64,000 nucleotides of DNA from the IMG/VR virus record IMGVR_UViG_3300043010_000145, one strand, 5' to 3'. The first letter of the stretch is position 1. Every line of letters begins with the position of its first letter. Source of the DNA: a virus. Its lineage: Duplodnaviria; Caudoviricetes. The notes below the pieces were generated by a model that was given only the letters and a program-made list of their open reading frames with translations, was not told where the DNA came from and ran no database searches. Below, piece by piece: positions 7,868 through 62,677 of this stretch. The position numbers and the translations under genes were made by a program.

Positions 7868-7928
7868 CTAAAGATGTCAGGCTTGGGAACTAGTATGTCT
7901 TAACTATTCGATTGGAAAACACAGATAT

Positions 7929-7998
7929 GTTGCAAATTTGCGGATTTGTAACAAGGTATACCAAGTTAAGTATGAAAACGGAAAAGCATCTTTCTAGT
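7929..7998 (+). promoter_or_regulatory. CRISPR leader-like segment, copy A
   Basis: GTTGCAAATTTGCGGATTTGTAACAAGGTATACCAAGTTAAGTATGAAAACG conserved with 41671-41722; ends in AGT directly before the repeat in both copies. Confidence 0.65.
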
Positions 7999-8108
7999 AC
8001 TTGCCCCATAAGGGTGGGAATGTTTCTGTATGTATTAGAACTACTTGTTGACCGTTTGCCCCGCACGGGCGGGGATATGTTTCTTGTTTCAACAATCTAT
8101 ACAAGTTG
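7999..8108 (+). CRISPR. Orphan mini-array of two degenerate type I-E-like repeats (7999-8027, 8054-8084) with a 26-nt spacer and a trailing segment
   Basis: ACTTGCCCCATAAGGGTGGGAATGTTTCT and GTTTGCCCCGCACGGGCGGGGATATGTTTCT; CCCCGC-N4-GCGGGG hairpin as in I-E repeats; spacer matches 7210-7235 at 22/26 with an AAT flank. Confidence 0.8.
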
Positions 8109-8136: not shown

Positions 8137-8203
8137 TATTGTCTAACAAGATAAAGCAGCGATACCTCGACACATAGGTCGGACTTCGCTGCTTTATCTT
8201 GTA

Positions 8204-8763
8204 TCAGATTTTATCTAACCATAACATTTGTTTTGTAGCAGATTTCACCTCGCTACAGTCTTTGTTTTGTACTAGATTTTGTCTAGTCGCAATCTTTATT
8301 TTGTTCCAGTATTTATCTTGTCCTATTTTCTCTACTCCACCTCTTCTGCCAGCACCAAACATTCTATGCATCAGCATTATACCCATACTATGATATTCTG
8401 CACCACCAGTAGAAGCACAGCAATCCTCTATTACAATAGGAATAATACCCGCATCCCAGAGCGAAATAGCACAGGCAAGCACACAAATTCCCAGCTATGC
8501 AAAGCAAATTTAGTTTGCTTTGCATAGCTAATTATTCTGTTAGAATAATTGCAAGTAAGCTCCTGTTCCGTAGCAGATTCCATTTTCATCCAACCTATTG
8601 CTTTTTCGTAGATACTTCCTTGTTCATTCTTGAATTGGGTACAAATTACGGTATCAAATTTCTTATTAGCAACCAGCTTCTGTATTCTTTCTGCACAAAC
8701 TTTTGTGTTTTCGTCTAAAAGAAAGCCTTGTTGTACATCTACAATCAGTAATATCTTCTGCAT
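8204..8763 (-). pseudogene. Isochorismatase/cysteine hydrolase family gene disrupted by a palindromic insert
   Basis: N-part MQKILLIVDVQQGF and C-part CVLACAISLWDAGIIPIVIEDCCAS lie in different frames, separated by a hairpin module at about 8486-8550. Confidence 0.8.
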
Positions 8764-16900: not shown

Positions 16901-19860
16901 CTTTAACAGATTCTGTATTTACGTATGAAACTGTAAATTTAGATATTGGAGATATTACAAACACACCTAAAGGTGCAACAATTTCTACAATAGAACCAGT
17001 TACAACCACGTATACTTACACTATACCTATGTCTGTAACCTTAACAAAGAAAGATTCTACTGCGGATATTATGTTGGCGGATGCAAATTATACTTTGTCT
17101 ACAAAAACTTTGAAAGATTCAGACTTTGTTCGTAGTCAGAATGCTACCACAGATAAGAATGGCTCTTTAAATGTATTGGATTCTGTAAGTGGTACGTTTG
17201 ATGTAAAAACTTCTTCTTATAAGTATTATGATGACTATGACGCACTGGTAAGCACTGTAAAAGAAGAAGCAGATAAGAAAATTGCAGCCAACGAAGTATA
17301 TAAAACAAAAGCAGATGCACAGGCTGCACAAGCAGCTTCTATTCCAGTATTAGCTAAGAATTATGTAGAAAATAATATTTCAACGGAAGTCATACAGGCA
17401 AAAGCAGTGGAAACTAAGGCACCTAGTGGGTATGTATTGGACACAACAGAACATGTTAGTAAAGAAGTAAAACCAACAAAATATACTTTGACAGATACTA
17501 CTTTTATGTATGATACTGTGAATTTAAGCATAGGAACTTTAACGAATACACCTAAGTCTGCTGATGTAGAAACATTGAATGAAGTTACAACAAAGTATAC
17601 TTATACTATACCAATGTCTGTAACGTTAACAAAGAAAGATGCTACCGCTGATATTCTGCTGGCAGATGCTAGTTACACCTTGGCTACAAAGACTTTGCTA
17701 GATGCAGATTTTTCAAGAGCACAAGTGTCTGCTACAAATGAAGATGGAGTTTTAACTGTGAACGATAGTGTCAGTGGGGAATTTAGTGTAACAACATCTT
17801 CTTATAGCTATTATACAGACTATGATTCTTTGGTTAGTACAGTGAAGGAAGACGCAGATAGTAAAATTGCGGCTAAGGAAGTATATAAGACAAAAGAAGA
17901 TGCACAGGTTGCATTAAATGCGTCTATACCAGTTCTTGCTAAACTTTATCTTGAAAAGAATATTTCATCACAAGATATTCAAGCTAGTGCTACGGAAATT
18001 AAAGCACCTGATGGGTATGTAGTAGATTCAGAAGTGCATATTAGTGATGCAGTTAAACCAACAAATTCAACTTTGACAAATACAGAATTCACGTATGATA
18101 AAGTTTCCTTGAATATTGGTACTTTAACAAATACGCCTAAGCCCGCAGTAGTTGATGAGTTAGATGCTCAAACAAAAGAATATTCCTATAATTTACCAGT
18201 AGATATACAGTTAGTGAATCAAGATGTAGATACTGAGGAGCCCTTGATTGGTTCAGATTTTACTATTACATCTGCCACTTCTCAGAAAGATAGTTCTTTT
18301 GCGGAAACTTATAATGAAACAACAAATGAAGTCGGCAAAATTAACTTATCTCGGGAAATCACGAATAAATTCACTGTAACGTCTAGTTCTTACAAATATT
18401 ACGATGATTACGATGCACTTGTAAGTACTGTAAAAGCAGAAGCAGATGAAAAGATTGCAAATAATGAAATTTATCAGTCTAAGGAAACTGCACAAGCAGC
18501 TCTTGAAGAAGAACAAGAAAAGCTTGCCAATCAGTATATGACGAATAATATTTCAACTACAACACTACAATCTACTGCAAAACAAACGAAAGCTGCTACA
18601 CCTTATGTTCTTAATACAGAGACCTATGAGTTGAATGATGTTCCAATGACGAACTATGCTTTTGACGAAGATACAAATACCTTCAATTATGAAACAGTAA
18701 TTATGGATTATAAAGTTGTAAATAATTTGAAGTATCTTGTGGAATTAGTGAATATAGAGAATGAAGTATTAGAAGGTGCAGAATTCCAGATTCAAGATGT
18801 AAATGGTACTGTAATTGACGAATGGGTATCCTCCGAAGAGCCACATGCTATACCGGAACTCGTAGATAATCAAACATATACAATTGTAGAGGTGAAAGCA
18901 CCACAAGGCTATGTTTTAGCAAATTCAACTACATTTGAAACGATTGATGAACATAATACAAAGATAACCATTGTAAACGGTAAGTATAGTGTATCTCTTG
19001 TAGATTCCCAAGAAGAAACTATCGAAGGTGCAAAATTCCAGCTTTTAGATGAAGAAGGTAATATCTTAGAAGAATGGGTATCTACCGAAGATGTTTATAT
19101 TCCTGATTCTTTAACTGTTGGTAAAACGTATACTATTGTTGAAACATATACGCCAACTGGATTTAATCAAATGCAGCCTTATACATTCACAGTAGCAAAT
19201 GAAAATGAAGCTATTGTTTTAAAGAATAATTGCACAAGTATCTATAAGAAAACTTCCACGGGCAAAGCCGTGGTAGGTGCTGCATTACAGATACAAGACG
19301 AGGAAGGTAATGTAATTGATAGCTGGCTAAGTGGTCAACAAGTTGTTTCACTTGAGGATTCCGTAGTTAAAGAAGCAAATGAAAAGGGTATTGCATATAT
19401 TGTAAAACCTGATATTTCAGAGAATTCAACTGAAGAAACTATACCGTCTGATGAAGATTTAGCTATTATTATTATGCAGAAGGTTAAGCCAACAACAACC
19501 GAAAATACATATGTTTTGATAACAGAATATTCTGACGGTAATTGGACTTATCAAGAAGTTGATAGTAAAGGTATTGAATTAGGACATAGAGCAAATCTTA
19601 TCTCTGATACCAATTATGAACTTGTGGAAACTAAAGCACCAGATGGTTTTGAACTTGCTTCTAATATGAGTTTTATTGCAAAAGCCGATACAGATTATTC
19701 TGTAACAATGATTGATGAATATAAAGTAGAAGCTGCAATTCATAAGCTAGCTACGGGTATTCATTCTAACATTACATATATTGCAGTTGGTTTCGCAGCC
19801 ATTGTAATTCTTGTCGTTATTTTTGTTTTGCGAAAGAAAAAACATACTGCCACAAACTAG
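10957..19860 (+). CDS. Giant cell-wall-anchored adhesin with SpaA/prealbumin-like repeats (2967 aa)
   Basis: Signal peptide; many roughly 195-aa repeats with LTKKD..LxGA.F and ETxAPxGYxL motifs; C-terminal LATG, hydrophobic segment and RKKK tail. Confidence 0.9.
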   Translation: MDKLKRTVLFLFLGILVLADTSMSIFAAGSRAADVIWGDIRTYSQEDMPYLSDAITAGNISYSTAYQRGRSSSDTVKTSVYQSQRFSSEYSSGYFAPQAGREMAGLSSTAASTGKVSLGYSWTYNGEASYWYSNTVCWNFTNTAYNSNIFVYYKQGAFYKGEYYDVKVYYWMEKTSGLDTSYKVYSSGSVQVVVDANGDTARQACSQVHMKMYFFKSDDTNVTFTDSTDKSNNGEGYKLATYSTVPANSKAAEFKGVLCITDMDAGEGMYFKSGVASAANVYLSSNTFIRRVHSDSDMHGAFNEYYNTGYTSELDTGSLYGVVASENASSNLSTLLKEYIADGMNASTKKFPLGTSTVASTLQSGYDTGLMYVSAFSNVSPDSSNSLLGNEPEYMSMWAEFFSSYSTPTELVYFTPSSRGADIGYRGVNINYQSVVVDNDCLQTTAKKSKELAADHATAYGSYPVTNASSAYAQAQSVYGSNYTVEGIYADSTLKTKYTSEDIIKLTDEDITLYVKIIPTYTVTAKSSTGGVTVTPSSTTLAEGDSCKISWTAQTGYVIADITVTAQQTTAAYGLVSLGGESHGVTSTYTMPSSNTVTGGYVTITEKDQAATGSTHNTHRNYVVNVRAVPITTDTVESSYQYEVPVTFNLTKTDSGDSTVLLQGATYSLSPYKALSGSTSYSAVTSANSTATTSSTGKISKKFTVASGTSSTYSTSIKYIQSSDILSSYSSTAQKNLFETAYKSTYTESTVRANAESTNVTSFTNWLTSSKLVGSKIQVKYTETTAPTGYQLSSTTKTSSSATVGSFSAGTDGVYRPTTALTITATDTNTPYSGTRQEANYSCNYLVYVPITVTLTKKDAGTSDLLSGAKFSMSSAITTNSSGVTLSLTNNTATATTNTNGTLTFTFQVKGSFTKNLTYYYYDMDSLTGSAKTAAQADVNANSNVYATKDEATKAVQAAVLAEANATATKLSNVVITVSAKETTAPTGYDLPSSATTTKTVTLGTLPYDSSTTSYGTTVTSSMTVTDTATAGTTATASKTQTYTYEIPTSLVITKTDATSNSALSGAVFSVTSTATDSTKTLTSETTNTQSVTTNSSGKATYSNTLTGSFTLTTKNYTYYTNYSSLKGSALKDANNAINNTTVFKTKSEAEAAADSELATLLSSKQTDLKNIAVTFSAKETTAPSGYALDTTTHTSSSIKSSAFTTSGTKLTGSISTTMSVTDTPSGGSLSVLTAQTKQYNYTIPVSIKLTKKDSTTNDALANATFTVVSKFGSESYGNSVSKTTDENGLLTATRNITGTISVTTSAYLYYTDYSSLVSSAKTEADTKIANGEAYKTKEDAQAAADAELPNLVKAKLASSVTSQAIQAKATETKAPSGYTLDTTAHESSKVYPSNYTLSGTTATYSTVSVDIGTVTNDAAGAATAQVEATTKEYTYSIPVSISLTKTDADSGNLLSGAVFDITTKGASDTTFTRKQSKTTDSNGAITTTDTITGKFSVTSKAYKYYVDYDSLVSTVKTEADKKIASGEMYKDETAARAAMLASLPSLAEEYLKTNISAVALQAQAIETTAPAGYELDATAHTSKEVKPTTYSLSDTVFTYDTVALQIGTITNEPKGAATSTLSSVTQNYSYTIPLQITLTKKDSDSDNLLQGAVFDITTKSATDSSFTRKQSKTTDNNGAISTADTVNGTFTITSNTFKYYDDYDSLVGTVKDEADKKIASNQVYKTKADAQAAQAASLPVLAKEYVEANISAKGIQAQAIETTAPDGYTLDTTVHTSEEVKPDKYTLSGTTFTYNTVTLPIGTVINTPKGASVSTVAAIEKQYSYVIPLQVTLTKKDSSTSSLLKGATFDITTKGLNDVDFTRKQTKTTDTNGSIIVTDSINGTFKVKSKEFKYYDDYNALVSTVKENADKKIAAGEMYKTKADAEAAQAASIPVLATEYLANNISTESIQAQAIETAAPDGYTLDTTAHLSKEVTPSKYSLTDSVFTYETVNLDIGDITNTPKGATISTIEPVTTTYTYTIPMSVTLTKKDSTADIMLADANYTLSTKTLKDSDFVRSQNATTDKNGSLNVLDSVSGTFDVKTSSYKYYDDYDALVSTVKEEADKKIAANEVYKTKADAQAAQAASIPVLAKNYVENNISTEVIQAKAVETKAPSGYVLDTTEHVSKEVKPTKYTLTDTTFMYDTVNLSIGTLTNTPKSADVETLNEVTTKYTYTIPMSVTLTKKDATADILLADASYTLATKTLLDADFSRAQVSATNEDGVLTVNDSVSGEFSVTTSSYSYYTDYDSLVSTVKEDADSKIAAKEVYKTKEDAQVALNASIPVLAKLYLEKNISSQDIQASATEIKAPDGYVVDSEVHISDAVKPTNSTLTNTEFTYDKVSLNIGTLTNTPKPAVVDELDAQTKEYSYNLPVDIQLVNQDVDTEEPLIGSDFTITSATSQKDSSFAETYNETTNEVGKINLSREITNKFTVTSSSYKYYDDYDALVSTVKAEADEKIANNEIYQSKETAQAALEEEQEKLANQYMTNNISTTTLQSTAKQTKAATPYVLNTETYELNDVPMTNYAFDEDTNTFNYETVIMDYKVVNNLKYLVELVNIENEVLEGAEFQIQDVNGTVIDEWVSSEEPHAIPELVDNQTYTIVEVKAPQGYVLANSTTFETIDEHNTKITIVNGKYSVSLVDSQEETIEGAKFQLLDEEGNILEEWVSTEDVYIPDSLTVGKTYTIVETYTPTGFNQMQPYTFTVANENEAIVLKNNCTSIYKKTSTGKAVVGAALQIQDEEGNVIDSWLSGQQVVSLEDSVVKEANEKGIAYIVKPDISENSTEETIPSDEDLAIIIMQKVKPTTTENTYVLITEYSDGNWTYQEVDSKGIELGHRANLISDTNYELVETKAPDGFELASNMSFIAKADTDYSVTMIDEYKVEAAIHKLATGIHSNITYIAVGFAAIVILVVIFVLRKKKHTATN

Positions 19861-20613: not shown

Positions 20614-23600
20614 TTGATTAATTTGGGGTGTTTAAAGCGAACATTTACGGTTTTTACAGCCTTATTTATAGTATTGTGCAGTTCTATCACTATGTTGTTT
20701 GCTGAAGAGCAAGAGTCATTAAAAAAGCAATATCATGACGCAAACACTTTTAATAAAGATTTAGAGAATTTTGAGTGGGGTGATGTTAGAACATATCCTA
20801 CGGAAACCATTGGTTGGTTATCTAATGCTATAAGTAAGGGTTATATTAAATATACAACAGATGCTGAACGTGGCGGTTCTTCTATTTATGCAAAGAACGG
20901 AAATACATCAAATTCAAAGTGTCATAGTTTCCGACAAGAGTACTCTAACGGGTATTTTTCCCCGCAGGGTGGCCACACAAAAGCTACAATTAGTTCTAAG
21001 TTGCGAGTAGCAACTTATGATGATTACAATAATTCACCAAGCTACAAAGCATTTCTCAATAATTTCGATGTTATTATAACGAATCATAATGAAAGTCGAA
21101 CAAATACATCCGTGGAGAGTTATTGGGCCATAGATAACGATATGTGGACTTTCTTTAATACTAGCTATAATGACAACATATATGTATATTATAAAGAGGG
21201 TGCTTTCTATAATGGTGAATATTATGACGTAAAGGCATATTACTGGACTGAAAGTACAGTAGAGGATTCCACAGATGTACCTATTCGTTATTCTGTGTTA
21301 TCTAGTGGTTCTATCTCAAATGGTTGGGCTGGCTCTGCTAGGAACGCACAAGCATTTACACAGGTGCATTGTAAGTTTTATTTCTTTAAATCATCTGATT
21401 ATCCTAATGCAAATGCAGATAATGCCCCTGCTAATTCTAAGGCAGTTGATTTTAAAGGTGTGTTTGGTATAACAGATTTAGATGCTGGGGAAGGTGTAAA
21501 ATTTATAAGCGGTGTGCAGTCTGACGAGAATGTGTATTTATATCAAAATACATTTGTTAAGAAGGCCACAGAGAGTACAATTCATGGTTTATTTAATGAG
21601 TTTTTCAATACGCAAAATTCTAGTACAGAAGATGGTGTTATTACTGCAAATGATGAAGAGTTAAACTTATTATATATTCAGGCTATGAAAGGCGGGGCTT
21701 CGAGTATTAACACTACAAATTGCCCATTTATTGCTACAACAGGTTTCAATACTACAACACATAAGTATGATTTAGCTAAAAGCACAGTCCCAACCAGTAT
21801 TTCTGGTACAGACGGTTCTTATGCTTTAACATATGTTGGTTCTTTTGATAATGTGAGTAGTAATTATTTATTAGGTAATGATGTGGAATCTATGATGCTC
21901 TGGGCGGAATTTTCCTCCACAGCTTCCGAGCCATTTGAAATAACTTATTTTAGTCCAAGTACTCGTTGCACAGATATTGCTTATAAAGGTCTAACTATTA
22001 ATTATAAGGCGAAAGTAGAAGATAATAATTGCTTGTCTAGCAGTAAGAAAACTACAACCGATTTAGCCACAGATTATGCAGATTATTATGGTACATATAC
22101 TTTACGTACCTTAGACGACACAAGTACTGATGGTTATACTGCTGAAAAATCTTTACTGCAAAAAGTAAAAGCAGAATATGGTGATGGTTACACTGTACAG
22201 GGTATTTATACAGATTCTACATTTAAAACACTAGCACCCGCAAGTGTAAGTTTAGGTGAAACTGACTTAACCTACTATGTCCTTGTTACACCAACCTACA
22301 ATGTAACTGCCGTAACAGATGCTGGTGCAACTCTGCTAACAGACGCTTCGGTTACAGGTCTAGCGGAAACATCTTCTACCAACACAAAGCTTGTGGAGGG
22401 CAGTACTGCAACCACTGTTAAATGGGAAGCAAAGAAAGGGTATATCATATCTGACGTAAAGATAGAAGCAATTCCCGCCACAGATACCGATTATTATGGT
22501 AATAGCAGTAAGATAAAAGATGTATCTAATACAGCGTATGCAAACAAGAATTATACATTGACAAGCGGTTCTGTTCAGATATGCGAGAAAGATGAAGATA
22601 ATATTCATAGAAATTACAAGGTAACTATATCTACGGTGGCCATAGGTTCTAAAGAAGATACTACATCTTTTGCATTAGAAGTTCCCGTCACATTTGAATT
22701 AACAAAAACGGATAGTGCCAATTCCAGTTTATTGCTAGAAGGAGCTACTTATGATGTTACATTCATGAAGGATTCAAAAGCAGTAACCACAGTGCAGGCT
22801 ACAACAGATGCAACAGGAAAATTAAGTGCAACTGCCGTTGTAGATTCTTACACGTATTCCAAATCTTTTGATACCACTAAATCATATATTGCGGGAACAT
22901 TGCCAAAGACGTATTCCAGTACAACACAGCAAGCATTGGTACAGAATGCAATTTCCAGCGGTAATTATTATGCAAATGAAAGTGCGGCATTAGCAGCATC
23001 TAAGGCTTTACGAGAAGAAGATTGGTTGAATGCAATAAAGAATAGAACTTCCAATATTACGGTGAAATATAAAGAAACGTCAGCACCATCCGGGTATGAA
23101 TTGTCTAGTAAAGAAAAGACTACATCAAGCATTACAGTGAATTCATATGCTGCCGATTCCAGTGGTGTGTATAAGCCTACAACAACAGTAAAACTTACTG
23201 CAACTGATACAAACACACCATATAGTGGTACACGAAAGACAGTTTCTAAGAGTGCTACTTATAATGTTTCTGTGCCTGTAAGTTTCCAAGTTACAAAGAA
23301 AGATGGCAGCACGAATGATTTATTATCTGGTGCAGATTTCTCAATCACAGGTACTATCTCTTCAAATACAACAGGTGTGAATTTGTCTTTAGCAAATTCT
23401 ACATCGACAGGTACAACAGATAGTAATGGTGTAGTAACTTATTCAACAAACTTGACGGGTTCGTTTACGAAAAATGCTACATGCTATTATTATGATTTAT
23501 CTTCCTTAGCAGGCTCTGCTAAAACAGAAGCACAGAAAGAGATAGATTCTAATAGTAATGTTTTTGCAACACAAGCGGAAGCAGAAGCGGCTGCATTAAA

Positions 23601-26283
23601 AGAAGTGGAAAGTGCTGCCCAAACAACGGCTAACGCATTAAAAGATGTCGAATTAACTTTTAAAGCAACAGAAACAAAAGCACCAAGCGGGTATAATCTT
23701 CCAGCAAATGCTGCCACAAGTAAAACTGCTACATTGGGTGAGTTGACATATGACAGTACTAAGAAACTATTTAGTACGAATGTTTCAGCAAAAACAGATG
23801 TTACAAATACAGCCACAGATGGTGTAACAGCTAAAACGTCTGCTAGCAGTACATATACTTACGAGATTCCAGTTACATTTACTTTAACAAAGACGGATGA
23901 AGCAAAGAATACACCATTAGCCAATGCAACATATTCGGTTGCTATGAACGTAGTTGACCCAACAGGCACTGTAACTTTACCAAATACATCTTCACAATCT
24001 GTAACAACGAATGATAAAGGTGAAGCAACAGTTACAAACACTTTGACAGGTACATTCCAGTTGGAAACTGGTCAATATAGCTATTATACAGACTACAGTT
24101 CTTTAAAAGGTGAAGCTTTAACAAAAGCAACAGCTGCTATTGATAATAAAACAGTATTTAAAACAAAAGAAGACGCAGATGCAAAAGCGAAACAAGATTT
24201 AGCTGAGTTATTGAAAGCAAAGCAAGAATCTTTAAAGACAATTTCTGTAAGTTATACGGCAACAGAAACAAAAGCACCAGACGGGTATACTTTGAGTTCC
24301 ACAGAGCTTACTACAAATGCAGTAAGTCCTACGGATGTTCAAGTGAACGGTACAAAATTATCTTCCACTATTTCCTTAAACTTAGAAGCAACAGATAAAC
24401 CAATTGAGCCAAGTATTGATGTGATTCAAGCTGTTGCAAATGAGTTTACATATAAAATTCCTCTTGAAACAACTTTGAAGAAAGTAAATGCAGAAACAAA
24501 TGACGGTTTGCAAGGTGCTGAGTTTACAATTCAAAGTAAATTAGGTGAAGATAACTTTACAGATACAGTTACACAAACAACTGACGATAATGGCTTATTA
24601 ACAGATACTCGTGAAATTACAGACACGTTTAAAGTCAAAACTTCTGCTTATTTGTATTATACAAATTATGATTCACTCGTAAGTACTGCCAAGATTGATG
24701 CTGATGCCAAGATAGCTTCCGGCGAAGTTTATAAGACAAAAGCAGACGCTGAGGCAGCAAGAGATGCAGAAATAACAAAGCTTTTAGAAGAATATACAGA
24801 AAAAAATATCACATCGCAATCTGTACAAGTACAAGCAACTGAAATTAAAGCTCCAACAGGTTATGTATTAGATATGACTGCACATGTAAGTGATGAGGTG
24901 AAACCGTCTAATTATACACTTAACGGTTCAACATTAACGTATGAAACAGTTAAATTTGATTTAGGTACAATCAAGAATGTGCAATATCTTGTTGAAAAAG
25001 TAGATAAGTCTAATACTTCCCTAGAAAATGCAGAATTGCAAGTTGTAGATTCCAGTGATACTGTAATTGATTCTTGGGTATCAGCAGCAGAGCCACATGC
25101 TGTTGATGGTTTAAAAGCAAATCAGACATATACTTTAGTGGAAACAAAAGCTCCGAAAGGGTATGCTATTGCAAAGCCTATTGAATTTACAACAGATGCT
25201 GAGGCTACCACAAAAGTAACTATGACAGATGTGAAGATTTCTATTTCTTTATTAGATGAGCATGATATGCCAGTGGAAGGTGCACAGTTACAATTGACTG
25301 ATGAAGATGGGAATGTAATTGCCACTTGGACTGTAACAGACGAACCTTATATTCCAGAAGGTTTAGAAGTTGGTAAAAAATATACTATTACCGAAATCTA
25401 TACACCGGATGGTTTTAATCAAATGCAGCCATATACTTTCACAGTTGGCGAAGAAGATATGAATATTGTTGTAAGAAATGGAGCAACTTTACTTTATAAG
25501 AAATCGCCTGATGAGAAAGAAGTAAAAGGTGCAGAATTGCAGCTTGAATCTAAAGACGGTACAGTAATAGATTCTTGGGTATCTGGGCAAGAGATTGTGC
25601 AATTAACGGATGAGTTGAAGCAAGAAGCAGATACAACAGGTGTTGCATATCTGATTGATAACAAGGAAGATACGCTATCCGTTTCTCTGAATAAAGAGCC
25701 TGATGAATCAAATAATTCTACCACCTTAGCAGATAGCTCTACTACTGTATCTGATATCGTATCTGAAACCACATCGGATACTGCCTTGGCAAGCGAAGAT
25801 GAAGATATTGTTTCTTACAATGAACCAAATAAACAGGCAAGTGATTCTGATGCAAATACTGAGAAAACGATTGTCATGCAGAAAATTAAACTAGCTTACA
25901 CAAAGAATTGCTATACTTTAATTACACAGTATAGTGATGATACTTGGACATATCAGGAAGTTAATGCGTATGGTAATGAAGCTGGGCATAGGGCAAGCCT
26001 TGTTGAAGGTGAAGAGTATTCTTTTGTAGAATCAAAAGCACCAAAAGGATACGAAGAAGCTGCTACGATTACATTTAAAGCAGAAGCTGAACAATCTTAT
26101 ACTTTAACTATGTATGACGAGTATCTCGTGGAAGGTGCAAGGAATAAAGCCGACACTGGTATTATGGGTAATAGTACTGTTATTGCAGTGGCTGCGATTG
26201 CTGCTGTGATATTGTTAGTCCTTATTCTTCTTGTTTTGAAAAAGAAAAAGAGTAAGCATACTTCCGATAATAGTTTGAATTGA
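20614..26283 (+). CDS. Cell-wall-anchored SpaA-repeat adhesin, paralog 2 (1889 aa)
   Basis: Same N-domain (WGDVRTY, GAFYNGEYYDVK, DLDAGEG) and repeats; ADTG, TM and KKKK tail. Confidence 0.9.
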   Translation: MINLGCLKRTFTVFTALFIVLCSSITMLFAEEQESLKKQYHDANTFNKDLENFEWGDVRTYPTETIGWLSNAISKGYIKYTTDAERGGSSIYAKNGNTSNSKCHSFRQEYSNGYFSPQGGHTKATISSKLRVATYDDYNNSPSYKAFLNNFDVIITNHNESRTNTSVESYWAIDNDMWTFFNTSYNDNIYVYYKEGAFYNGEYYDVKAYYWTESTVEDSTDVPIRYSVLSSGSISNGWAGSARNAQAFTQVHCKFYFFKSSDYPNANADNAPANSKAVDFKGVFGITDLDAGEGVKFISGVQSDENVYLYQNTFVKKATESTIHGLFNEFFNTQNSSTEDGVITANDEELNLLYIQAMKGGASSINTTNCPFIATTGFNTTTHKYDLAKSTVPTSISGTDGSYALTYVGSFDNVSSNYLLGNDVESMMLWAEFSSTASEPFEITYFSPSTRCTDIAYKGLTINYKAKVEDNNCLSSSKKTTTDLATDYADYYGTYTLRTLDDTSTDGYTAEKSLLQKVKAEYGDGYTVQGIYTDSTFKTLAPASVSLGETDLTYYVLVTPTYNVTAVTDAGATLLTDASVTGLAETSSTNTKLVEGSTATTVKWEAKKGYIISDVKIEAIPATDTDYYGNSSKIKDVSNTAYANKNYTLTSGSVQICEKDEDNIHRNYKVTISTVAIGSKEDTTSFALEVPVTFELTKTDSANSSLLLEGATYDVTFMKDSKAVTTVQATTDATGKLSATAVVDSYTYSKSFDTTKSYIAGTLPKTYSSTTQQALVQNAISSGNYYANESAALAASKALREEDWLNAIKNRTSNITVKYKETSAPSGYELSSKEKTTSSITVNSYAADSSGVYKPTTTVKLTATDTNTPYSGTRKTVSKSATYNVSVPVSFQVTKKDGSTNDLLSGADFSITGTISSNTTGVNLSLANSTSTGTTDSNGVVTYSTNLTGSFTKNATCYYYDLSSLAGSAKTEAQKEIDSNSNVFATQAEAEAAALKEVESAAQTTANALKDVELTFKATETKAPSGYNLPANAATSKTATLGELTYDSTKKLFSTNVSAKTDVTNTATDGVTAKTSASSTYTYEIPVTFTLTKTDEAKNTPLANATYSVAMNVVDPTGTVTLPNTSSQSVTTNDKGEATVTNTLTGTFQLETGQYSYYTDYSSLKGEALTKATAAIDNKTVFKTKEDADAKAKQDLAELLKAKQESLKTISVSYTATETKAPDGYTLSSTELTTNAVSPTDVQVNGTKLSSTISLNLEATDKPIEPSIDVIQAVANEFTYKIPLETTLKKVNAETNDGLQGAEFTIQSKLGEDNFTDTVTQTTDDNGLLTDTREITDTFKVKTSAYLYYTNYDSLVSTAKIDADAKIASGEVYKTKADAEAARDAEITKLLEEYTEKNITSQSVQVQATEIKAPTGYVLDMTAHVSDEVKPSNYTLNGSTLTYETVKFDLGTIKNVQYLVEKVDKSNTSLENAELQVVDSSDTVIDSWVSAAEPHAVDGLKANQTYTLVETKAPKGYAIAKPIEFTTDAEATTKVTMTDVKISISLLDEHDMPVEGAQLQLTDEDGNVIATWTVTDEPYIPEGLEVGKKYTITEIYTPDGFNQMQPYTFTVGEEDMNIVVRNGATLLYKKSPDEKEVKGAELQLESKDGTVIDSWVSGQEIVQLTDELKQEADTTGVAYLIDNKEDTLSVSLNKEPDESNNSTTLADSSTTVSDIVSETTSDTALASEDEDIVSYNEPNKQASDSDANTEKTIVMQKIKLAYTKNCYTLITQYSDDTWTYQEVNAYGNEAGHRASLVEGEEYSFVESKAPKGYEEAATITFKAEAEQSYTLTMYDEYLVEGARNKADTGIMGNSTVIAVAAIAAVILLVLILLVLKKKKSKHTSDNSLN

Positions 26284-38452: not shown

Positions 38453-38540
38453 CCCGTCATGGTGGAATCGGCAGACACACCGGACTTAAAATCCGTTGCT
38501 CATTTCGAGCGTTCCAGTTCAAATCTGGATGACGGGACCA
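38453..38540 (+). tRNA. tRNA-Leu (anticodon TAA)
   Basis: Acceptor CCCGTCA/TGACGGG-A-CCA, anticodon loop CTTAAAA, long variable arm GCTC/GAGC, T-arm TCCAG-TTCAAAT-CTGGA. Confidence 0.95.
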
Positions 38541-40553: not shown

Positions 40554-40739
40554 ATGAAATATTTTGTAAATGTACGTATTGACGGATGCTATACGGCTGC
40601 TGTAAATGCAAAAGATATTGACGAAGCTATCGAGAAAGCACAAGAAAAATATGCAAAAAAGAATTTTGGTGAAGATGTTTATTTGCTTGATGGCTTCGAA
40701 GTGATGTCTGTGGAAGACGAAGATGGTAACGAACTCTAA
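40554..40739 (+). CDS. Small acidic protein, family member 1
   Basis: MKYFV..DG....VNA..IDEAIEKA...VEDEDGN shared with 41944 and 42137. Confidence 0.8.
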   Translation: MKYFVNVRIDGCYTAAVNAKDIDEAIEKAQEKYAKKNFGEDVYLLDGFEVMSVEDEDGNEL

Positions 40740-41638: not shown

Positions 41639-41727
41639 GTAAAGCTACCAGTCAGAAAACTCGAAGGTGTGTTACAAAGTTGCGAATTTGTAACAAGGTG
41701 TACCGAGTTAAATATGGAAACGAAAGT

Positions 41728-41807
41728 GTTTGCCCCGCACGGGCGGGGATGTTTCTGTTTGCGATAAAGACTGGAATTTTATTTTATCCGCTGATTTCAA
41801 TGATTAA
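41728..41807 (+). CRISPR. Solitary type I-E-like repeat (41728-41756) followed by a guide-like segment
   Basis: GTTTGCCCCGCACGGGCGGGGATGTTTCT (29 nt); the next 51 nt match 41224-41274 at 41/51; leader-like segment at 41671-41727. Confidence 0.8.
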
Positions 41808-41943: not shown

Positions 41944-42132
41944 ATGAAATATTATGTAACTTATGTAATAGACGGAAGATTAACCGTTGAAGTGAATGCG
42001 AATAGTTTAGAAGAAGCTGTAACAAAAGCAGATTATGCCTATGATGATGCTAATCTTGGTAAAACAGAAGTTGTTGATTCGTTCTTATCTTTGATAGAAG
42101 ATGAAGATGGGAATTATTTGTTTGAGAGGTGA
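41944..42132 (+). CDS. Small acidic protein, family member 3
   Basis: MKYYVTYVIDGRLTVEVNANSLEEAV...IEDEDGN. Confidence 0.8.
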   Translation: MKYYVTYVIDGRLTVEVNANSLEEAVTKADYAYDDANLGKTEVVDSFLSLIEDEDGNYLFER

Positions 42133-44192: not shown

Positions 44193-44397
44193 AGTTAGTA
44201 AACACTAACTATTATTTGATTAAAATATTTATTTTATGCTTGCATTTCGTAAATATAGGAGTATACTTATAATCAGAAAGAGGTACAGAAAACCTTATAA
44301 TAAAACCTTTTGCAAAAACTTCCCCTCTTTCTAATTTAGACATTATTTTTTCCTTTCTGAGAAGAAGCCGTGAATTCCCCACACGGCTTTTTCTTTG
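44193..44397 (+). ncRNA. Operator-promoter-sRNA-terminator cassette 2
   Basis: AGTTAGT-aaac-ACTAACT; TTGCAT...TATACT; stem AGAAAGAGG/CCTCTTTCT; CAT-N7-TCCTTTCT; terminator with ATTCCCCA loop. Confidence 0.65.
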
Positions 44398-44460
44398 TCA
44401 AAATTTCTATATCTAATATCAGTAATTAAACAAATAGAAATATACGGAAAGGTGAAAATT

Positions 44461-45621
44461 ATGAACTACATCTCATTATTTAGCAGTGCTGGTGTTGGCT
44501 GCTATGGTTTTCAAAAAGAAAATTATGATTGCATAGCAACAGTGGAAATGTTACCAAGACGAATGGCAATACAACGATATAACAACAAATGTAAATACGA
44601 TACTGGATATATTTGTGGAGATATAACAAAGAAAGATATTCACAACCAAATATTCGAGCAAATTAAACTTTGGAATGAGCCAGTTGATGTCGTCATTGCC
44701 ACTCCGCCATGTCAAGGTATGTCCGTAGCGAATCTAAAAAAGAAAGCAGATAAGGAACTCATTCGTAATTCATTAGTAGTTGAAGCAATTAAGCTCATTA
44801 AATCTATTCAGCCAAAATTCTTTATTTTTGAGAATGTGCCAACTTTTTTGAAAACAATCTGTACGGACACAGACCATTTAGATAAACCAATAGGGCAAGC
44901 CATAGAAGAAAATCTTGCACAAGAATATATTTATGAAGCAAGAACACTAAATTTTGTAAATTATGGCAACAATTCCAGTAGAACGAGAACTCTTGTGATA
45001 GGAGTTTCTCGTTCATATTCTACAAAAATCAAGCCAGCATCATTGTTTCCACAAGAAACAAAGGCAAAGACCGTAAGAGAAGTAATCGGGTATTTGCCAG
45101 CATTACATACTTTTGAAGAAATATCTGCAACAGACATTTATCATTCTTTCCGACCTTATGCTCCACAAATGCGAGAATGGATTTCTTGTCTAAACGAAGG
45201 TGAATCTGCTTTCGATAATGAAGATGATTTAAAGAAACCGCATAAGGTTGTAGACGGGAAGATTGTAATACATCAGCAGAAAAGCCATGATAAATATAAG
45301 CGACAATTCTGGGATAAGCCAGCTTTTTGTGTACACACAAGAATGGATACCTTATCCAGCCAGAATACAATTCACCCACAAGACGATAGAGTTTTTAGTA
45401 TAAGAGAACTAATGCTTCTAATGACCATACCCGAAGATTTTAAATGGTGCGAGCAAAGTTTGGAAGAACTCAATGCTCTGCCAGTAGAAGAAAAGAAGAA
45501 ATATTTGCGAAAAGAAGCACCTACAATTCGTAAAGCAATAGGTGAAGCTGTGCCTACAAGTATATTTCAGCAGATAGCAAGAAATATAAAAGGACAATCT
45601 AGTCTGCTACTGAATAATTAG
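44461..45621 (+). CDS. Orphan C5-cytosine DNA methyltransferase
   Basis: SLFSSAG motif I, TPPCQGMS catalytic motif, FENV, RTR, R.FSIRE, IGEAVP; GAAAGGTG RBS. Confidence 0.92.
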   Translation: MNYISLFSSAGVGCYGFQKENYDCIATVEMLPRRMAIQRYNNKCKYDTGYICGDITKKDIHNQIFEQIKLWNEPVDVVIATPPCQGMSVANLKKKADKELIRNSLVVEAIKLIKSIQPKFFIFENVPTFLKTICTDTDHLDKPIGQAIEENLAQEYIYEARTLNFVNYGNNSSRTRTLVIGVSRSYSTKIKPASLFPQETKAKTVREVIGYLPALHTFEEISATDIYHSFRPYAPQMREWISCLNEGESAFDNEDDLKKPHKVVDGKIVIHQQKSHDKYKRQFWDKPAFCVHTRMDTLSSQNTIHPQDDRVFSIRELMLLMTIPEDFKWCEQSLEELNALPVEEKKKYLRKEAPTIRKAIGEAVPTSIFQQIARNIKGQSSLLLNN

Positions 45622-45837: not shown

Positions 45838-46047
45838 AGTTAGTAAGTACTAACTATATTTCTACACAAATTTATATTTTATGCTTGCAATCTAAAACTA
45901 TAAGAGTATAATAATAATCAGAAAGAGGGTTCACATCTAACGAGCTATGCAAAACAAAAACATTAAATAATTAAAAAGAACCCATCTTTCATGTATATTT
46001 CATTTTGTGTCCTTTCTGAAAACACCGTGCGACTGCACGGTGTTTTC
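45838..46047 (+). ncRNA. Operator-promoter-sRNA-terminator cassette 4
   Basis: AGTTAGTA-ag-TACTAACT; TTGCAA...TATAAT; stem GAAAGAGGGTTC/GAACCCATCTTTC; CAT-N6-TCCTTTCT; terminator AAAACACCGTGC/GCACGGTGTTTT. Confidence 0.65.
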
Positions 46048-46143
46048 CATTTTCTCCTCCAATCCAAAAGATTTTCTGTTTCTATCATTATTTCTCAAAA
46101 ATATAGTATACTAATTATACACACAAGGAGGAAATTGCCCACT

Positions 46144-46551
46144 ATGGAAAATAACAACGAAGCATTACTTCACGAAGCAGAACTCGAAGCAGAAAAAGGC
46201 TTAAACGAGCAACTTCAACCTGAACCAGAAACTTTCACGGGTTTCCGTCCGGGAGCTTTCGATAACCCACCGCAACAGCCAATGCCACCACATCAGCCAC
46301 AGCCATTAGATGCAAAATTTGATGAGTTACACCGTAAACTTGATGCTTTTGAAGTGAAGCTGTCAGCCATGGAAGGTGAGGCTGCTAAAATTCACGAAGA
46401 CTTAGGTGTTATACGTGAAGAATTTGACAAACAAGATGAAGAATTATCCGTTCAGCACGATAAACTGAATTCTATCATTACTGTTGCAGTAATTGTTTTA
46501 CTTGCTACGGGATATATTGCGGGTATTCTTACTTCACAAGTTTTCTTTTAA
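46144..46551 (+). CDS. Coiled-coil protein with C-terminal membrane anchor
   Basis: AAGGAGG RBS; Pro/Gln linker, heptad region, terminal TM helix. Confidence 0.75.
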   Translation: MENNNEALLHEAELEAEKGLNEQLQPEPETFTGFRPGAFDNPPQQPMPPHQPQPLDAKFDELHRKLDAFEVKLSAMEGEAAKIHEDLGVIREEFDKQDEELSVQHDKLNSIITVAVIVLLATGYIAGILTSQVFF

Positions 46552-46651
46552 TTTGTTTTACCAAGTCCTTGCCTAAGGACTTTTTATTTTGTCTGCTCTT
46601 TTCTCTTTTACTTGAAATCTGTATGTATTATAGAAAAGGAGTTTTTACAAA

Positions 46652-47545
46652 ATGATTGATTTAGACAAGTATTGGGAAAAACATATCAATTTTCTTTCTA
46701 ACTCTGCACATATAAATTTTTTAGCTAAAAACAAAGATTCCAGTTCTGCACCATTTAATCAGATTTTCTATAAACACGGTTTTGATGTTTCTGTTTATGC
46801 TCAAATCTTCTGGAACTATGCTAATACCACAGACAAGAATTTTCTTGAACTATTTCCAAATAAAACGGAAGAAGATATTCAAAGATTGCTTGTTGCTCTT
46901 TCGTACTTGCACGATATAGGGAAACTGGCAGAAAGCAACCAACAACTCATTTGCAACAACAAGGTAACACCTACACACCCATTTGCAAGTGTTGTTGTTC
47001 TTTCTAATCTTTCCAACATTTCTACACAAGAATTATCTGCAACCAACCTACCAAGCTGGCTTGAACTTATCTATATGCACCACGGCTGGCTGTCCGAAAA
47101 GTTTGAAGCAAGTTTGTCTGCTTATAGCCACTCTGACAAAATTTCTAACCTATTTGCTCTAAGCAAAGAAGCGGTAGAATATATTCGTACTTATTACCGA
47201 ACTTATATTGAAGATTTGCAGAATTTAGCACAAGACTTGGATTTATGGCAAGAACTTGTACTTCTTAATATTTTAATTCTCGCAGACAATATTGCTTCTA
47301 ATCTGGAACAATACAAACTTCCGACAGAGTTCCAATCCGCCACAGATTATCAGACATATCTGCAACAGCAACCAGATTATAATTTCTATGATTTTGCCTA
47401 TGTCTATCGGGTATTACACAACAGTATGGAGCAAGATACTCGTTCCATTATGCAATATTGCAAAGACAATGATATTACAAAGCTGGAAACATTGAGGAAG
47501 CTAGGGTATCAGTTTTGTGCAAAAGAGCTTGAATTAGCATTATAA
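46652..47545 (+). CDS. Stand-alone Cas3''-like HD nuclease domain protein 1
   Basis: LAK...KHGFD...YLHDIGK...HPFAS...MHHG...LADNIAS: motif order of Cas3 HD domains; no helicase part. Confidence 0.75.
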   Translation: MIDLDKYWEKHINFLSNSAHINFLAKNKDSSSAPFNQIFYKHGFDVSVYAQIFWNYANTTDKNFLELFPNKTEEDIQRLLVALSYLHDIGKLAESNQQLICNNKVTPTHPFASVVVLSNLSNISTQELSATNLPSWLELIYMHHGWLSEKFEASLSAYSHSDKISNLFALSKEAVEYIRTYYRTYIEDLQNLAQDLDLWQELVLLNILILADNIASNLEQYKLPTEFQSATDYQTYLQQQPDYNFYDFAYVYRVLHNSMEQDTRSIMQYCKDNDITKLETLRKLGYQFCAKELELAL

Positions 47546-47721
47546 AAGCAGAAAGAGTTTTCTTTCTGCTTTTCTTTTCGCTTAGCAGAAGCAAGCCTCC
47601 TCATACTTCGGAAACCTTGCTTCTGCCTGATATTAGTTATTTCTTATATTAAACTAAGGCACGAGACCTCGCTTTCTTTCATTCCATTCAAGAAACCGGA
47701 CTTCGTGCCTTGTCTTGCACC

Positions 47722-47910
47722 AGTTTTTATCTAACCGTAGTTTTTGTCTTGCCCTAGTTTTCATCTAACCGCAGTTTTTGTCTTGCCCTAGTTTTCATCT
47801 AACCGCAGTTTTTGTCTTGCCCTAGTTTTCATCTAACCGCAGTTTTTGTCTAGCCGTAGTAATTGTCTAGCCGTAGCTTTTATCTAGCCACAGTAATTGT
47901 CTAGCCATAG
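47722..47910. repeat. 34-bp (2 x 17 bp) tandem array decaying into 17-bp units
   Basis: AGTTTTCATCTAACCGC + AGTTTTTGTCTTGCCCT repeated nearly four times. Confidence 0.92.
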
Positions 47911-48041
47911 CTCCCGCATAGCCTCACCATTTTCTTGCCCTAGTTTCTTTTCAGCCACATTTCCATTTTGCCCGCTGACATTTTGCCCAATATTTAGCAA
48001 AAAACAATATGATTTGTGTAAAACTTAGAAAGGAGAACATC

Positions 48042-49124
48042 ATGAATGAAAAACTTTTCCAAGAACTCTATGCCCAAAGCCAAAGCAGTCAGCACAAAGA
48101 ATATCTTGCCAAAACATCGAGCCTTGCACCATTAGAAAGCAATGGGTACTTCTTTACTCATGCCATGGACTCAGCCATATTTGCAGATATGTTTGTCGAA
48201 GAATTTATTGCCCAATGTAAGCATTACCCAGACCTTCTTGCTTTCATTAAGGCAAATGTCAATCTTGAAGAAATTGTTGTCAGCTATGCAAAACTGCACG
48301 ACTTAGGAAAGTTAGAGAAAAAACTTCAAGCTATGTTTAAAGATAATAATAAAACAGATTCGCTTGATTCACATTCTTTTGGTTCAGCAGTTATCTGCAA
48401 CAATATTCTAAACCACAAACCAATAACACAGTTTGAATTAGAAAAATTAGAAACTTTGCCCGCATTTATTGATATTTTGAGTCTGCATCACCTACAACTT
48501 GTAGATACTTATATTACTAGAATGAGAAATTATGAAATTAATCTAGGTTCAAAAGAACCTAACCACTACATTACCAAAGAAACCGTAAAGTATCTGCAAA
48601 CCTATTTTGCCCGAGATATAGAGAATATGCGAGGGCAAGACAAATCTATTCCGCTTGTTGTTCGTATGCTTGTGTTGAATTTAGTAAAAATGGCCGATGA
48701 TTTAGCCTCGAATAAAGAAAGGTACACAGAGCAGCCGTTCAATTCAGCCAAAGTGTATGCCACTTATTATGATAAACACAAGTATGAATATGGCTATACC
48801 AATATGGCTCATACTTATAATTTGTTGTACCAATCATTAGGCAATAGGCAAGAGAGCATTTTGTATTATTGCAAGCGAAACAACATTAAAGACTTAATTC
48901 CAAAGCGAAAGCTAGGGTATGCATTTGTTCTTAGTGAAGCACAGAGCTTAATCAACTTACGGTATCAGCAAGAGAAAGATAAACAGCAGTACTTAGCGAC
49001 AATCAGCAAACAAGCTGGGACAATACAGATATTACAGAAGTATAAGCAAGATTTAGAGCAAGAGAATGCTCAGCTTAAAGCACAATTGCCTAAGCCAAAG
49101 AAGAAAAGATTCTTTTGGTTCTAA
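48042..49124 (+). CDS. Stand-alone Cas3''-like HD nuclease domain protein 2 with coiled-coil/basic tail
   Basis: LAK...THAMD...LHDLGK...HSFGS...LHH...MADDLAS; shares SIxxYCKxNxI...RKLGY with protein 1. Confidence 0.75.
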   Translation: MNEKLFQELYAQSQSSQHKEYLAKTSSLAPLESNGYFFTHAMDSAIFADMFVEEFIAQCKHYPDLLAFIKANVNLEEIVVSYAKLHDLGKLEKKLQAMFKDNNKTDSLDSHSFGSAVICNNILNHKPITQFELEKLETLPAFIDILSLHHLQLVDTYITRMRNYEINLGSKEPNHYITKETVKYLQTYFARDIENMRGQDKSIPLVVRMLVLNLVKMADDLASNKERYTEQPFNSAKVYATYYDKHKYEYGYTNMAHTYNLLYQSLGNRQESILYYCKRNNIKDLIPKRKLGYAFVLSEAQSLINLRYQQEKDKQQYLATISKQAGTIQILQKYKQDLEQENAQLKAQLPKPKKKRFFWF

Positions 49125-49749
49125 TCCGAAGCAAGATGAACTACATCTTGCTTTTCTTTTGCTCTAACATTCTGATTTCATAGGGTATTTTTCGTTCTAA
49201 AACCTCGGAAACTGTACTCTCCGTCTTGTTGTAAATAGCTAAAATAGAACGAAATCAAGCCATTTTAGAAGTATTATAAACATATTTAACACCATATTAG
49301 AAAAGAATTAAGCCAAATAAGAAAAGAACTCAAAAAAAGAAAGCAAAAATAATTGCAGACTTTTTGTTTTTCATTATCACATTAGACATAGAACAAAATC
49401 AAAATAGAAAGAATTTTTCTTCTCTCTTTCAGAAAATTTCTTTCATATTTAGCTAATGAAACATATTGTTTTCATAATTATAAAAATACATAAAAATTTT
49501 GTAATTTTTGCTTGCAAATGAGTTCAAATTTGATAAAATATACTTGTCTCATGGCAAAGCAGAGACCTCAAACAAATTCCAATTGGTACTCTCTCCTACA
49601 ACCTTTAGAATTTGACCTCACATTTGTCATGGAAAAGCTGTTTTAGGTAAAAAATTTGGGAACTATATCTGAAACTAGCAAAATCTGAAACTAGCAAAGG
49701 ACAAAGGCGAACAGTTACCTCCTGTTCGCCTTTTTTAATTTTGCTCTAT

Positions 49750-61138: not shown

Positions 61139-62677
61139 ATGGCAATACATTTCTACAAAGGACACTTAACAGGCGATTACTTAGATGATGCTCTTTGCGA
61201 TAGGCTCCTTAAAATTCAACAGCTTTCCGAAGAAGGTGTTTCATTTGAAGCATTAAGGCATATCATATATGATTTAACACCAGAGCATATTGCACAAGTC
61301 ATGCAAACCAAAGAACCAATTTCACCCGAAACACTTGCACCCGAAGAAACTGGAACATTGACCTCTTTACAAACCGTTGGTGTTGCCTATATGTATCTTG
61401 CCAAGCGATTACTCTTAGCCGATTCCGTTGGTTTTGGTAAAACTCCGCAAGTTGCTGGTTTAATCAGATATATGCAAGAATTATCCCCAGATAAACAACC
61501 GCCCCGTTTTCTATATTGCACAAAAGCTAGTCTAATCGACAAAGACCACAGCGAGTTAATTCGCTTCACCAACTTACCCGTTCAACTATTACACGGTACA
61601 ACAAGTAAGCTAAAAAAAGAACTTGCTAAAAATCCAGATAGTTCCTATGTTGCACCGCATTCCATTATAAAAAATGCCACATTTCAAGAATGGCTGCTCC
61701 TTCACCCAGATGTTTTCGATATTATTGTTATAGATGAATCTGGTGCAGTTGGAACGGCTGGCACAACAGATTTCACCAAACCCGCTCAGCGAATTTGCAG
61801 TATGTCAGACCGAGTGATTTTGTTAAATGCCACACCATTCGAGTGTCGCTTAGATTCCTTTTGGAGTCAGCTCAATCTTGTAGACCCTACATTATTGCCT
61901 TCCCGTACAGAATTCCGCAGAATGTTCCAGCAGCAAGAATTTGACGGGTACTCTTGGCATTTCGTAGAAAAATACAAAAACCCCGCAGAGTTTAAAGAAG
62001 CAATACAACTTCGCTTTTTATCTCGCAAACGAATTACAACAGGCGGAACTATGACAAACTGTTCCGCAGAACTGATTACCCTAGGTAAGTCTGCTATACA
62101 AAAGAAGCTTGATGCCCTAACTACACAACATCAGCTTGTCTATGATTGTCCGAGCTTGATTGACAAAGATATTGATACCGATGTATCTACAACACCAAAA
62201 CTAGCCAAAACATTGGAACTTGTGCAATCACACCCAGATGAGCCAAGAATTCTAATTTATTGCCCGTATATCGAAGCACAAGCAGCTATACAACAGACTT
62301 TACAGCAATATGGATACAATACTCTTATTTTAAACGGACAAACTAAGCAAGATGACCGCTTAGCCATTACACAGCAGTTTACAAACAATGAAAAGCAAAT
62401 TCTCATAACCAATGTTATGGAGGGTATGAACCTAGGTAATTGCCACATGCTCATTTACTACACCTTATGCCCTAGTGCCAGCAAAATCGTGCAAGTGGAA
62501 GGTCGTATTACTCGTGAGCAAAATATCCAAGACAAACATGTTTATGTTTTAGCTACAAAAGGTAGAGAAATTAGCTATATACATAAAACGATAGCAAACA
62601 GAGCACGAGCTATGCAAGAGTTCCAAGGCAGAGATTTTAGCATGGTGCTTGACTTGTTAGAACAGGCGGGAGTTTAA
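61139..62677 (+). CDS. SNF2-family (SF2) helicase-like ATPase
   Basis: LLADSVGFGKT Walker A, IVIDES, LNATP, EGMNL, QVEGRITR. Confidence 0.85.
   Translation: MAIHFYKGHLTGDYLDDALCDRLLKIQQLSEEGVSFEALRHIIYDLTPEHIAQVMQTKEPISPETLAPEETGTLTSLQTVGVAYMYLAKRLLLADSVGFGKTPQVAGLIRYMQELSPDKQPPRFLYCTKASLIDKDHSELIRFTNLPVQLLHGTTSKLKKELAKNPDSSYVAPHSIIKNATFQEWLLLHPDVFDIIVIDESGAVGTAGTTDFTKPAQRICSMSDRVILLNATPFECRLDSFWSQLNLVDPTLLPSRTEFRRMFQQQEFDGYSWHFVEKYKNPAEFKEAIQLRFLSRKRITTGGTMTNCSAELITLGKSAIQKKLDALTTQHQLVYDCPSLIDKDIDTDVSTTPKLAKTLELVQSHPDEPRILIYCPYIEAQAAIQQTLQQYGYNTLILNGQTKQDDRLAITQQFTNNEKQILITNVMEGMNLGNCHMLIYYTLCPSASKIVQVEGRITREQNIQDKHVYVLATKGREISYIHKTIANRARAMQEFQGRDFSMVLDLLEQAGV

Follow-up and report, generated by a model that had tools for sequence, protein, structure and literature searches.

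Isolated Cas3 HD domains and Cas3'' proteins act in vitro as metal-dependent nucleases on single-stranded DNA (ssDNA). The full-length Cas3 of type I-E CRISPR systems, a protein of ~900 amino acids, combines an HD domain with RecA1, RecA2 and C-terminal domains. The split-Cas3 systems, which belong to type I-A, I-B and I-D loci and are represented by the type I-A system of Pyrococcus furiosus (PDB 7TR8, 7TRA and 7R2K) and by MJ0384 of Methanocaldococcus jannaschii (3S4L), have the HD nuclease, Cas3'', as a polypeptide of its own, ~200–240 amino acids long, encoded beside a Cas3' helicase and the Cascade genes. Here we describe two tandem genes on a 64,000-nucleotide stretch of DNA from a Caudoviricetes virus (IMG/VR record IMGVR_UViG_3300043010_000145), referred to below in its full length as the window, which are predicted to encode Cas3-type HD nucleases outside any cas operon of the window. 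Gene 1 (46652–47545, plus strand) encodes the 297-residue protein P0001, and gene 2 (48009–49124, plus strand) encodes P0002, with 371 residues in its longest open reading frame (ORF).

Both proteins lack the RecA1, RecA2 and C-terminal domains of full-length I-E Cas3, ending at 297 and 360–371 residues respectively. They share with Cas3'' the property of being a separate HD polypeptide, but carry ~45–110 additional residues at the C-terminus, and neither a Cas3' helicase nor Cascade genes are found beside them among the ORFs scanned. That scan, with Pfam and/or PADLOC, covered 40 further ORFs of the window, with two giant ORFs (10957–19860 and 20614–26283) outside it.

Relationship to type I-E Cas3 heads

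An earlier note on this DNA had read the two genes as tandem paralogs encoding helicase-less nucleases of the Cas3 HD type. The two plus-strand ORFs are present where it had placed them and are both intact, and the paralogy is confirmed by an identity of 31% over 289 residues (E = 3e-36). The note had called for searches with two family profiles. With PF18019, gene 1 scores 49.9 bits and gene 2 38.5 bits, both above the curated cut-off of 23.1 bits, and the matches extend over positions 5–204 and 16–205 respectively of the 207 in the profile. With TIGR01596, the Cas3'' family, gene 1 scores 45.9 bits, above the curated cut-off of 43.45 bits, and gene 2 scores 33.8 bits, below it. Neither protein matches a helicase family in Pfam, NCBIfam or PADLOC scans.

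The metal ligands that had been proposed (an N-terminal H, HD, H, HH and a late D) are borne out in both proteins, which carry the Cas3 metal and catalytic motifs H, HDxGK, H, HH and D..S. In an alignment of 32 rows, comprising the two paralogs and 30 Cas3 heads drawn from genomes, residues H42, H87, D88, G90, K91, H143, H144, D212 and S216 (gene 1 numbering) are invariant in every row, and the motif III histidine, H109, is common to both paralogs. Judged from this alignment, neither copy seems to lack any part of the active site, and the original description of helicase-less Cas3-type HD proteins that retain the full catalytic set is upheld.

Profile comparisons point to type I-E as the closest subtype. 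Among the PADLOC models, Cas3e scores highest for both proteins (58.9 bits for gene 1 and 44.8 bits for gene 2), with the Cas3b, Cas3c and Cas3a2 models at 20–35 bits (Cas3c 21, Cas3a2 20). Alignment of a profile of the two paralogs with canonical Cas3e heads by hhalign gives a probability of 94% (E = 1e-7) over 195–200 columns, corresponding to residues 22–223, compared with a probability of ~11% for two further groups of Cas3 drawn from the same sample of genomes. The Cas3e sequences were fetched by way of one Dehalococcoidia genome, which carries a lone exact match to the core of the I-E-like repeat described below; genomes flagged as unpublished contributed no locus to the analysis. Identity with the Cas3e heads is only 14–21%.

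Structural comparisons agree with this placement. A model of P0001 from the ESM Atlas, made without an alignment (predicted template modelling score (pTM) 0.76), has as its best neighbour a 915-residue Cas3 from Bacillota, with a TM-score of 0.66 over 260 residues, and the feature clusters nearest to P0001 in this atlas consist of Cas3_HD proteins of ~290–310 amino acids. An AlphaFold model seeded with the Cas3e alignment has a predicted local distance difference test score (pLDDT) of 72 and a pTM of 0.74. Its core is modelled confidently and its C-terminus stays below 50; the model obtained from the alignment of the two paralogs alone had a pLDDT of 37 and was set aside. In a fold comparison with 48,161 PDB representatives, ranks 1–4 are all Cas3, namely the Thermobifida fusca type I-E protein (Z = 11.4), the Thermus thermophilus HD domain (10.1), 4q2d (9.9) and a type I-F2 protein (8.4), whereas generic HD enzymes score no higher than 8.1, the type I-A Cas3-HD proteins 7.0–7.1 and a type I-C Cas3 6.8. 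The best fold matches are thus I-E heads, with Z of 11.4–12.0 for T. fusca Cas3 (PDB 4QQW and 6C66) and 10.1–10.2 for the T. thermophilus Cas3 HD domain (3SK9 and 3SKD), and it is with these proteins that the window proteins have PF18019 and the motif set in common. The known Cas3'' proteins match more weakly, at Z of 7.0–7.1 and 20 bits with the PADLOC Cas3a2 model. A Foldseek search against the PDB also places Cas3 chains in the top rows, with probabilities of 0.9–0.99, although every E-value is above 0.2. The alternative that these are HD phosphohydrolases unrelated to Cas is not borne out, the best structural matches being Cas3 HD domains instead. Four partly independent lines, drawn from sequence and from predicted structures, agree in supporting the assignment of both proteins as I-E-like Cas3 heads.

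The earlier note had also described an extra block shared by the two C-termini, and this proves to be real, reading SIMQYCKDNDI...RKLGY in P0001 and SILYYCKRNNI...RKLGY in P0002. The block, ~45 residues long, occupies approximately residues 250–297 of P0001 and is the best conserved stretch of the pair, with 41.5% identity over residues 250–290 compared with 29% in the HD core. The block is private to the window proteins and stands at the place where I-E Cas3 is linked to its helicase. No Pfam family matches it, and nothing usable came from querying the ESM Atlas with the C-terminal portion of P0002. In a PDB sequence search the best hit, to an unrelated TEPP protein, had an E-value of 0.075, and a type I-A Cas3-HD appeared at 0.4. 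The idea that the block is a vestige of the start of RecA1, suggested by a MAFFT alignment that placed it on the helicase Q-motif and Walker-A region, was discarded as an alignment artefact when hhalign gave a probability of 0.1% for similarity between the block and the part of Cas3e downstream of its HD domain.

Beyond the block, gene 2 has a tail of 60 residues, rich in lysine and glutamine and ending in KPKKKRFFWF, with an isoelectric point (pI) of 9.9; it possibly forms a coiled coil. The two proteins also contrast in charge, that of gene 1 being acidic (pI 5.0) and that of gene 2 basic (pI ~8.9). We read the two genes as long-standing duplicates from the type I-E Cas3 head lineage, both maintained and separately transcribed.

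Proposed function and its alternatives

The genes had been placed about 5 kb from an RNA cassette, cassette B, with no other cas gene in the window. The I-E-like repeat of this cassette lies at ~41726–41755, 4.8 kb upstream of gene 1, and none of the scanned ORFs is another cas gene; the absence of a cas operon holds for the window, among these ORFs. They include no I-E Cascade gene and no DEAD/DEAH helicase of the Cas3 type, the nearest helicase being of the SNF2 type (61139–62677). Repeats of this I-E-like kind, GTGTTTGCCCCGCACGGGCGGGGAT..., occur without cas genes both at ~41726–41755 and at 7778–8080. They are like the I-E repeat of E. coli in beginning with GTGTT, in having a CCCCGC/GCGGGG stem and in the AT that comes after it. 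The I-E affinity of the HD proteins fits these nearby mini-arrays, which are themselves I-E-like and devoid of cas genes.

Relatives of the two proteins were sought widely. A word-index search of 5.8 billion proteins returned nothing beyond the two themselves, and no relative was found when 1.84 billion representatives were searched exhaustively with an HMMER profile, in IMG/VR viral, JGI metagenome and GTDB genome contigs, or by tblastn against PLSDB plasmids and INPHARED phages; PHROGs likewise gave nothing for either protein. Each forms a singleton cluster, found on seven contigs of which the longest is 576,898 bp. An independent gut metatranscriptome contains contigs identical to parts of gene 2 (48048–48282 and 48441–48611), and others that match the small gene upstream of gene 1 and a probable small RNA at 49566–49696. 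None of its contigs covers gene 1 or the neighbouring methylase gene, although contig data of this kind cannot show that a gene is silent. For gene 2 these contigs give a weak hint of expression, and no more than that because the contigs of an RNA library can also derive from DNA.

Our preferred reading, held tentatively and with a probability of about 0.4, is that the two proteins are active, stand-alone ssDNA nucleases of the Cas3'' type that their private C-terminal module brings to a partner, probably a Cascade of type I-E provided in trans. By analogy with isolated Cas3 HD domains, each protein would be a metal-dependent ssDNA nuclease, tethered by its C-terminal block to some partner at which single-stranded DNA is exposed. 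The likeliest such partner would be the R-loop of an I-E-type Cascade, which might come from the host or from another part of the 577-kb contig, and this would be the same machinery that the neighbouring cas-less I-E-like mini-arrays require. Having no helicase, the proteins would nick rival sibling elements locally or cut them over a short range, and would not shred them processively. Type I-A, to judge from the titles of PDB 7TR8 and related entries, offers a precedent for an HD-only subunit docked on Cascade. A more elaborate version, in which the element supplies both the guide, through I-E mini-arrays directed against variant alleles of its own genes, and the helicase-free head, together making an RNA-guided nickase that favours recombination, gene conversion or homing between related elements, seems to us quite improbable. 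In that version the acidic paralog and the basic one might each be matched to a Cascade of its own, or the two might work as a pair.

Several observations weigh against recruitment to Cascade. When 185,579 species genomes were searched for exact copies of the repeat core, a single and irrelevant match came up, in a Dehalococcoidia genome, and neither an I-E Cascade, nor Cas6e, nor a host was found. The nearest mini-array is 4.8 kb from the genes, and the two genes form separate transcription units, with unrelated genes lying between them and that array. The searched sets contain no homologues, which leaves no means of measuring selection or of asking whether the genes co-occur with mini-arrays or Cascade. 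No Cas3 region or known domain is detectably similar to the C-terminal block, which is modelled with a pLDDT below 50. The I-E placement itself carries reservations: the Cas3e-seeded alignment biases the AlphaFold model towards the I-E fold, Z-scores of 10–12 are moderate rather than decisive for an all-helical protein, and the order of subtypes is a ranking of hidden Markov model scores, not a phylogeny. Finally, I-E Cas3 is recruited via Cas8 as a whole helicase-nuclease (PMC12956352), whereas for the present proteins we infer docking of a lone head.

These features have to be weighed against three other explanations. The HD head may have been captured from a cas3 gene and exapted as a nuclease with no CRISPR partner, acquiring a new role through its C-terminal module; degradation of the incoming ssDNA of rivals, stand-alone defence or counter-defence, and DNA processing are examples of what it might do. 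Such an origin would suit two monocistronic genes with no cas gene, array or helicase adjacent to them, in a family that has diverged past sequence-level detection from all Cas3 in 1.84 billion representative proteins and whose best conserved part is a new block absent from Cas3. It would also suit the company of other defence-type genes in the window, among them a PD-T4-6-like kinase, an Eco57I-type methylase and an SNF2 helicase. It accords less well with the unusual wealth of CRISPR parts on the element, which match the proteins in their I-E flavour; none of the neighbours indicates an alternative partner or pathway, and to our knowledge Cas3_HD proteins seldom occur away from CRISPR-Cas loci. 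Exaptation of this kind is in our view possible but doubtful. That the genes are merely decaying remnants of truncated cas3 genes, now functionless, could be argued from the HD-only clusters of ~290–310 amino acids in the ESM Atlas, some of which have been guessed to be truncated cas3 fragments, and from the lack of an RNA contig covering gene 1. We consider it highly improbable, given that both copies, at an identity of 31%, retain an open frame, a ribosome-binding site (RBS), a terminator and all catalytic residues, that the shared C-terminal block, which is foreign to Cas3, is better conserved than the core, and that gene 2 is present in the RNA library.

The proteins could instead be Cas-derived anti-CRISPRs or modulators that sit on host Cascade where Cas3 would dock, or that bind the CRISPR RNA or some other Cas component, and that would in this way blunt the host's type I interference with the element. 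With no helicase present, processive interference is impossible, and an orphan-looking C5 methyltransferase with small proteins nearby is reminiscent of anti-defence islands. Orphan cas homologues on phages and mobile elements are known to act in this manner, including the Cas3 homologues AcrVIA2 and AcrVIA2.1 (10.1101/2023.06.24.545427), but the known Cas3-derived anti-CRISPRs have the helicase and lack the HD domain, which is the opposite architecture. Moreover, both copies keep every catalytic residue at 31% identity, when a passive decoy needs none of them. This speaks against a purely passive form of the Cas3 mimic that the earlier note had offered as one of two possible roles, the other being a nickase partner of host Cascade. 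Scans with Pfam, PADLOC and PHROGs detected no known acr or aca family nearby. An inhibitory role therefore appears unlikely to us, and the preferred reading remains that of nucleases recruited through their C-terminal module.

Gene layout and surroundings

Each of the two plus-strand genes has an RBS and a terminator-like hairpin of its own. The 5' region of gene 1 (46624–46651) contains a likely extended -10 element, TGnTATTAT (46624–46631), and an RBS, AAAGGAG (46635–46641), ten bases 5' of the ATG; the terminator-like hairpin of the gene upstream (46563–46582) precedes this promoter region. At the end of gene 1 a terminator-like hairpin (47544–47573, plus strand) consists of a 13-pair stem followed by a T run. 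The corresponding region of gene 2 (47968–48041, plus strand) holds a possible promoter, TTGCCC-17-TATTTA (47968–47996), and a putative RBS, GGAG (48032–48035), both proposed from the sequence alone. The true start of gene 2 is most likely the ATG at 48042, giving a protein of 360 residues, rather than position 48009, because GGAG precedes the former and the latter has no such site. Gene 2 also ends in a terminator-like hairpin (49128–49154, plus strand), with an 11-pair stem and a T run. Since each gene has its own terminator-like hairpin, we regard the two as separate transcription units.

Between the genes lies an intergenic tandem array (47706–47923) of 17/34-bp units with the core TTGTCTTGCC.TAG, for which Tandem Repeats Finder gives a score of 260 and 4.4 copies of a 34-bp unit at 94% identity; the core has six matches, compared with zero expected by chance. 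Related arrays are found at 229–492 and 8190–8318, the repeat families concerned being D5 and D11. All three arrays are built of 16–17/33–34-bp units with a common core, are intergenic and lie 3' of terminators, and more copies occur elsewhere, in contigs of a public run that covers 98% of the stretch and probably represents the source sample. They are candidates for protein-binding arrays or iterons. Because related arrays exist elsewhere in the window, the one between the HD genes is a dispersed intergenic feature, and the idea that it is an operator bound by the C-terminal block was dropped, the array not being specific to this locus.

Directly 5' of gene 1 is a small gene (46144–46551) for a protein of ~135 amino acids with a PQ-rich repeat and a hydrophobic C-terminal helix. 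To judge from its sequence the protein looks tail-anchored, and its central region looks like a coiled coil. A longer ORF, from 45991, overlaps a terminator hairpin (46018–46047), and RNA-library contigs cover 46129–46453. Further upstream are the C5 DNA methyltransferase gene (44395–45621), apparently an orphan, and small proteins to which no function has been assigned. On the downstream side, the interval 49512–49733 contains a promoter-like sequence, TTGCAA-16-TAAAAT with a TG, followed by a strong terminator (49703–49733); the deepest metatranscriptome contig on the stretch, with a depth of 51.9, corresponds to 49566–49696 within it, which is the probable small RNA referred to above. Beyond this are DUF285/leucine-rich repeat surface proteins and the SNF2 helicase.

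Other genes of the window that bear on defence or on RNA lie at a greater distance. A 289-residue protein (1546–2415) strongly matches the PADLOC PD-T4-6 and mad6 Ser/Thr-kinase defence models (E = 5e-49), and an Eco57I-type methylase is also among the defence-type genes. The segment 61139–63998 comprises the SNF2-family helicase, with ZorD/BrxH/DrmD-like scores, and then an ORF still open at the window end with weak PDC-M03A matches. Two paralogs of 61–62 amino acids (40554–40739 and 41944–42132) score 19 and 17 bits with the RNA polymerase inhibitor family PF16857, below its cut-off of 27 bits. The segment 37897–38540 holds the gene of a 153-residue zinc-ribbon protein, which has weak and non-significant Cas12f/TnpB TNB-like matches, and directly after it the only tRNA of the window, tRNA-Leu-TAA (38453–38540).

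Comparison with described systems

In contrast to I-E Cas3, to whose heads they are most similar, the window genes stand outside any cas operon within the window. Their setting, with no other cas gene in the scanned ORFs and yet an I-E-like mini-array 4.8 kb away, invites comparison with two kinds of mobile-element system. The Cas-derived anti-CRISPRs AcrIB3, AcrIB4, AcrVIA2 and AcrVIA2.1 (Katz et al., 10.1101/2023.06.24.545427) are orphan cas genes of viruses or mobile elements. The point of resemblance is a partial Cas3 homologue on a mobile-looking element, lying apart from any cas operon that would match it. AcrVIA2 and AcrVIA2.1, however, keep the DEAD-box helicase and have no HD domain, whereas the window proteins show the reverse, with an apparently intact nuclease site.

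The second comparison is with the cas-less mini-arrays that viruses and plasmids carry and that depend on Cas proteins borrowed in trans (PMC11656645). The window element has I-E-like arrays of this type; in the parts of that account available to us, the arrays are described with no accompanying nuclease-only Cas3 fragment. The HD genes may be part of the same Cas-borrowing strategy as the mini-arrays. Which of the borrowed proteins effect mini-array interference is a largely untested question, and an element that carries a head of its own, matched in subtype to its arrays, offers a handle on it.

The significance of the locus depends on which explanation is correct. Docking on Cascade would make the head a natural type I effector without a helicase, one that nicks locally, with a bearing both on conflicts between mobile elements and on genome editing. 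If it blocks Cas3 recruitment instead, it would be the first HD-type anti-CRISPR derived from Cas3. In either case the conserved C-terminal block would represent a new adaptor module, and if neither is true the pair would remain a clear example of a Cas3 HD domain put to new use away from a cas operon.

Systems of three kinds were already known: stand-alone Cas3'' nucleases, mobile elements with orphan cas genes, and mini-arrays that lack cas genes. What is new here is the combination, in which an HD-only protein of the I-E lineage, without detectable relatives, carries an adaptor-like block, is duplicated, and is encoded outside a cas operon on an element that has matching cas-less guides.

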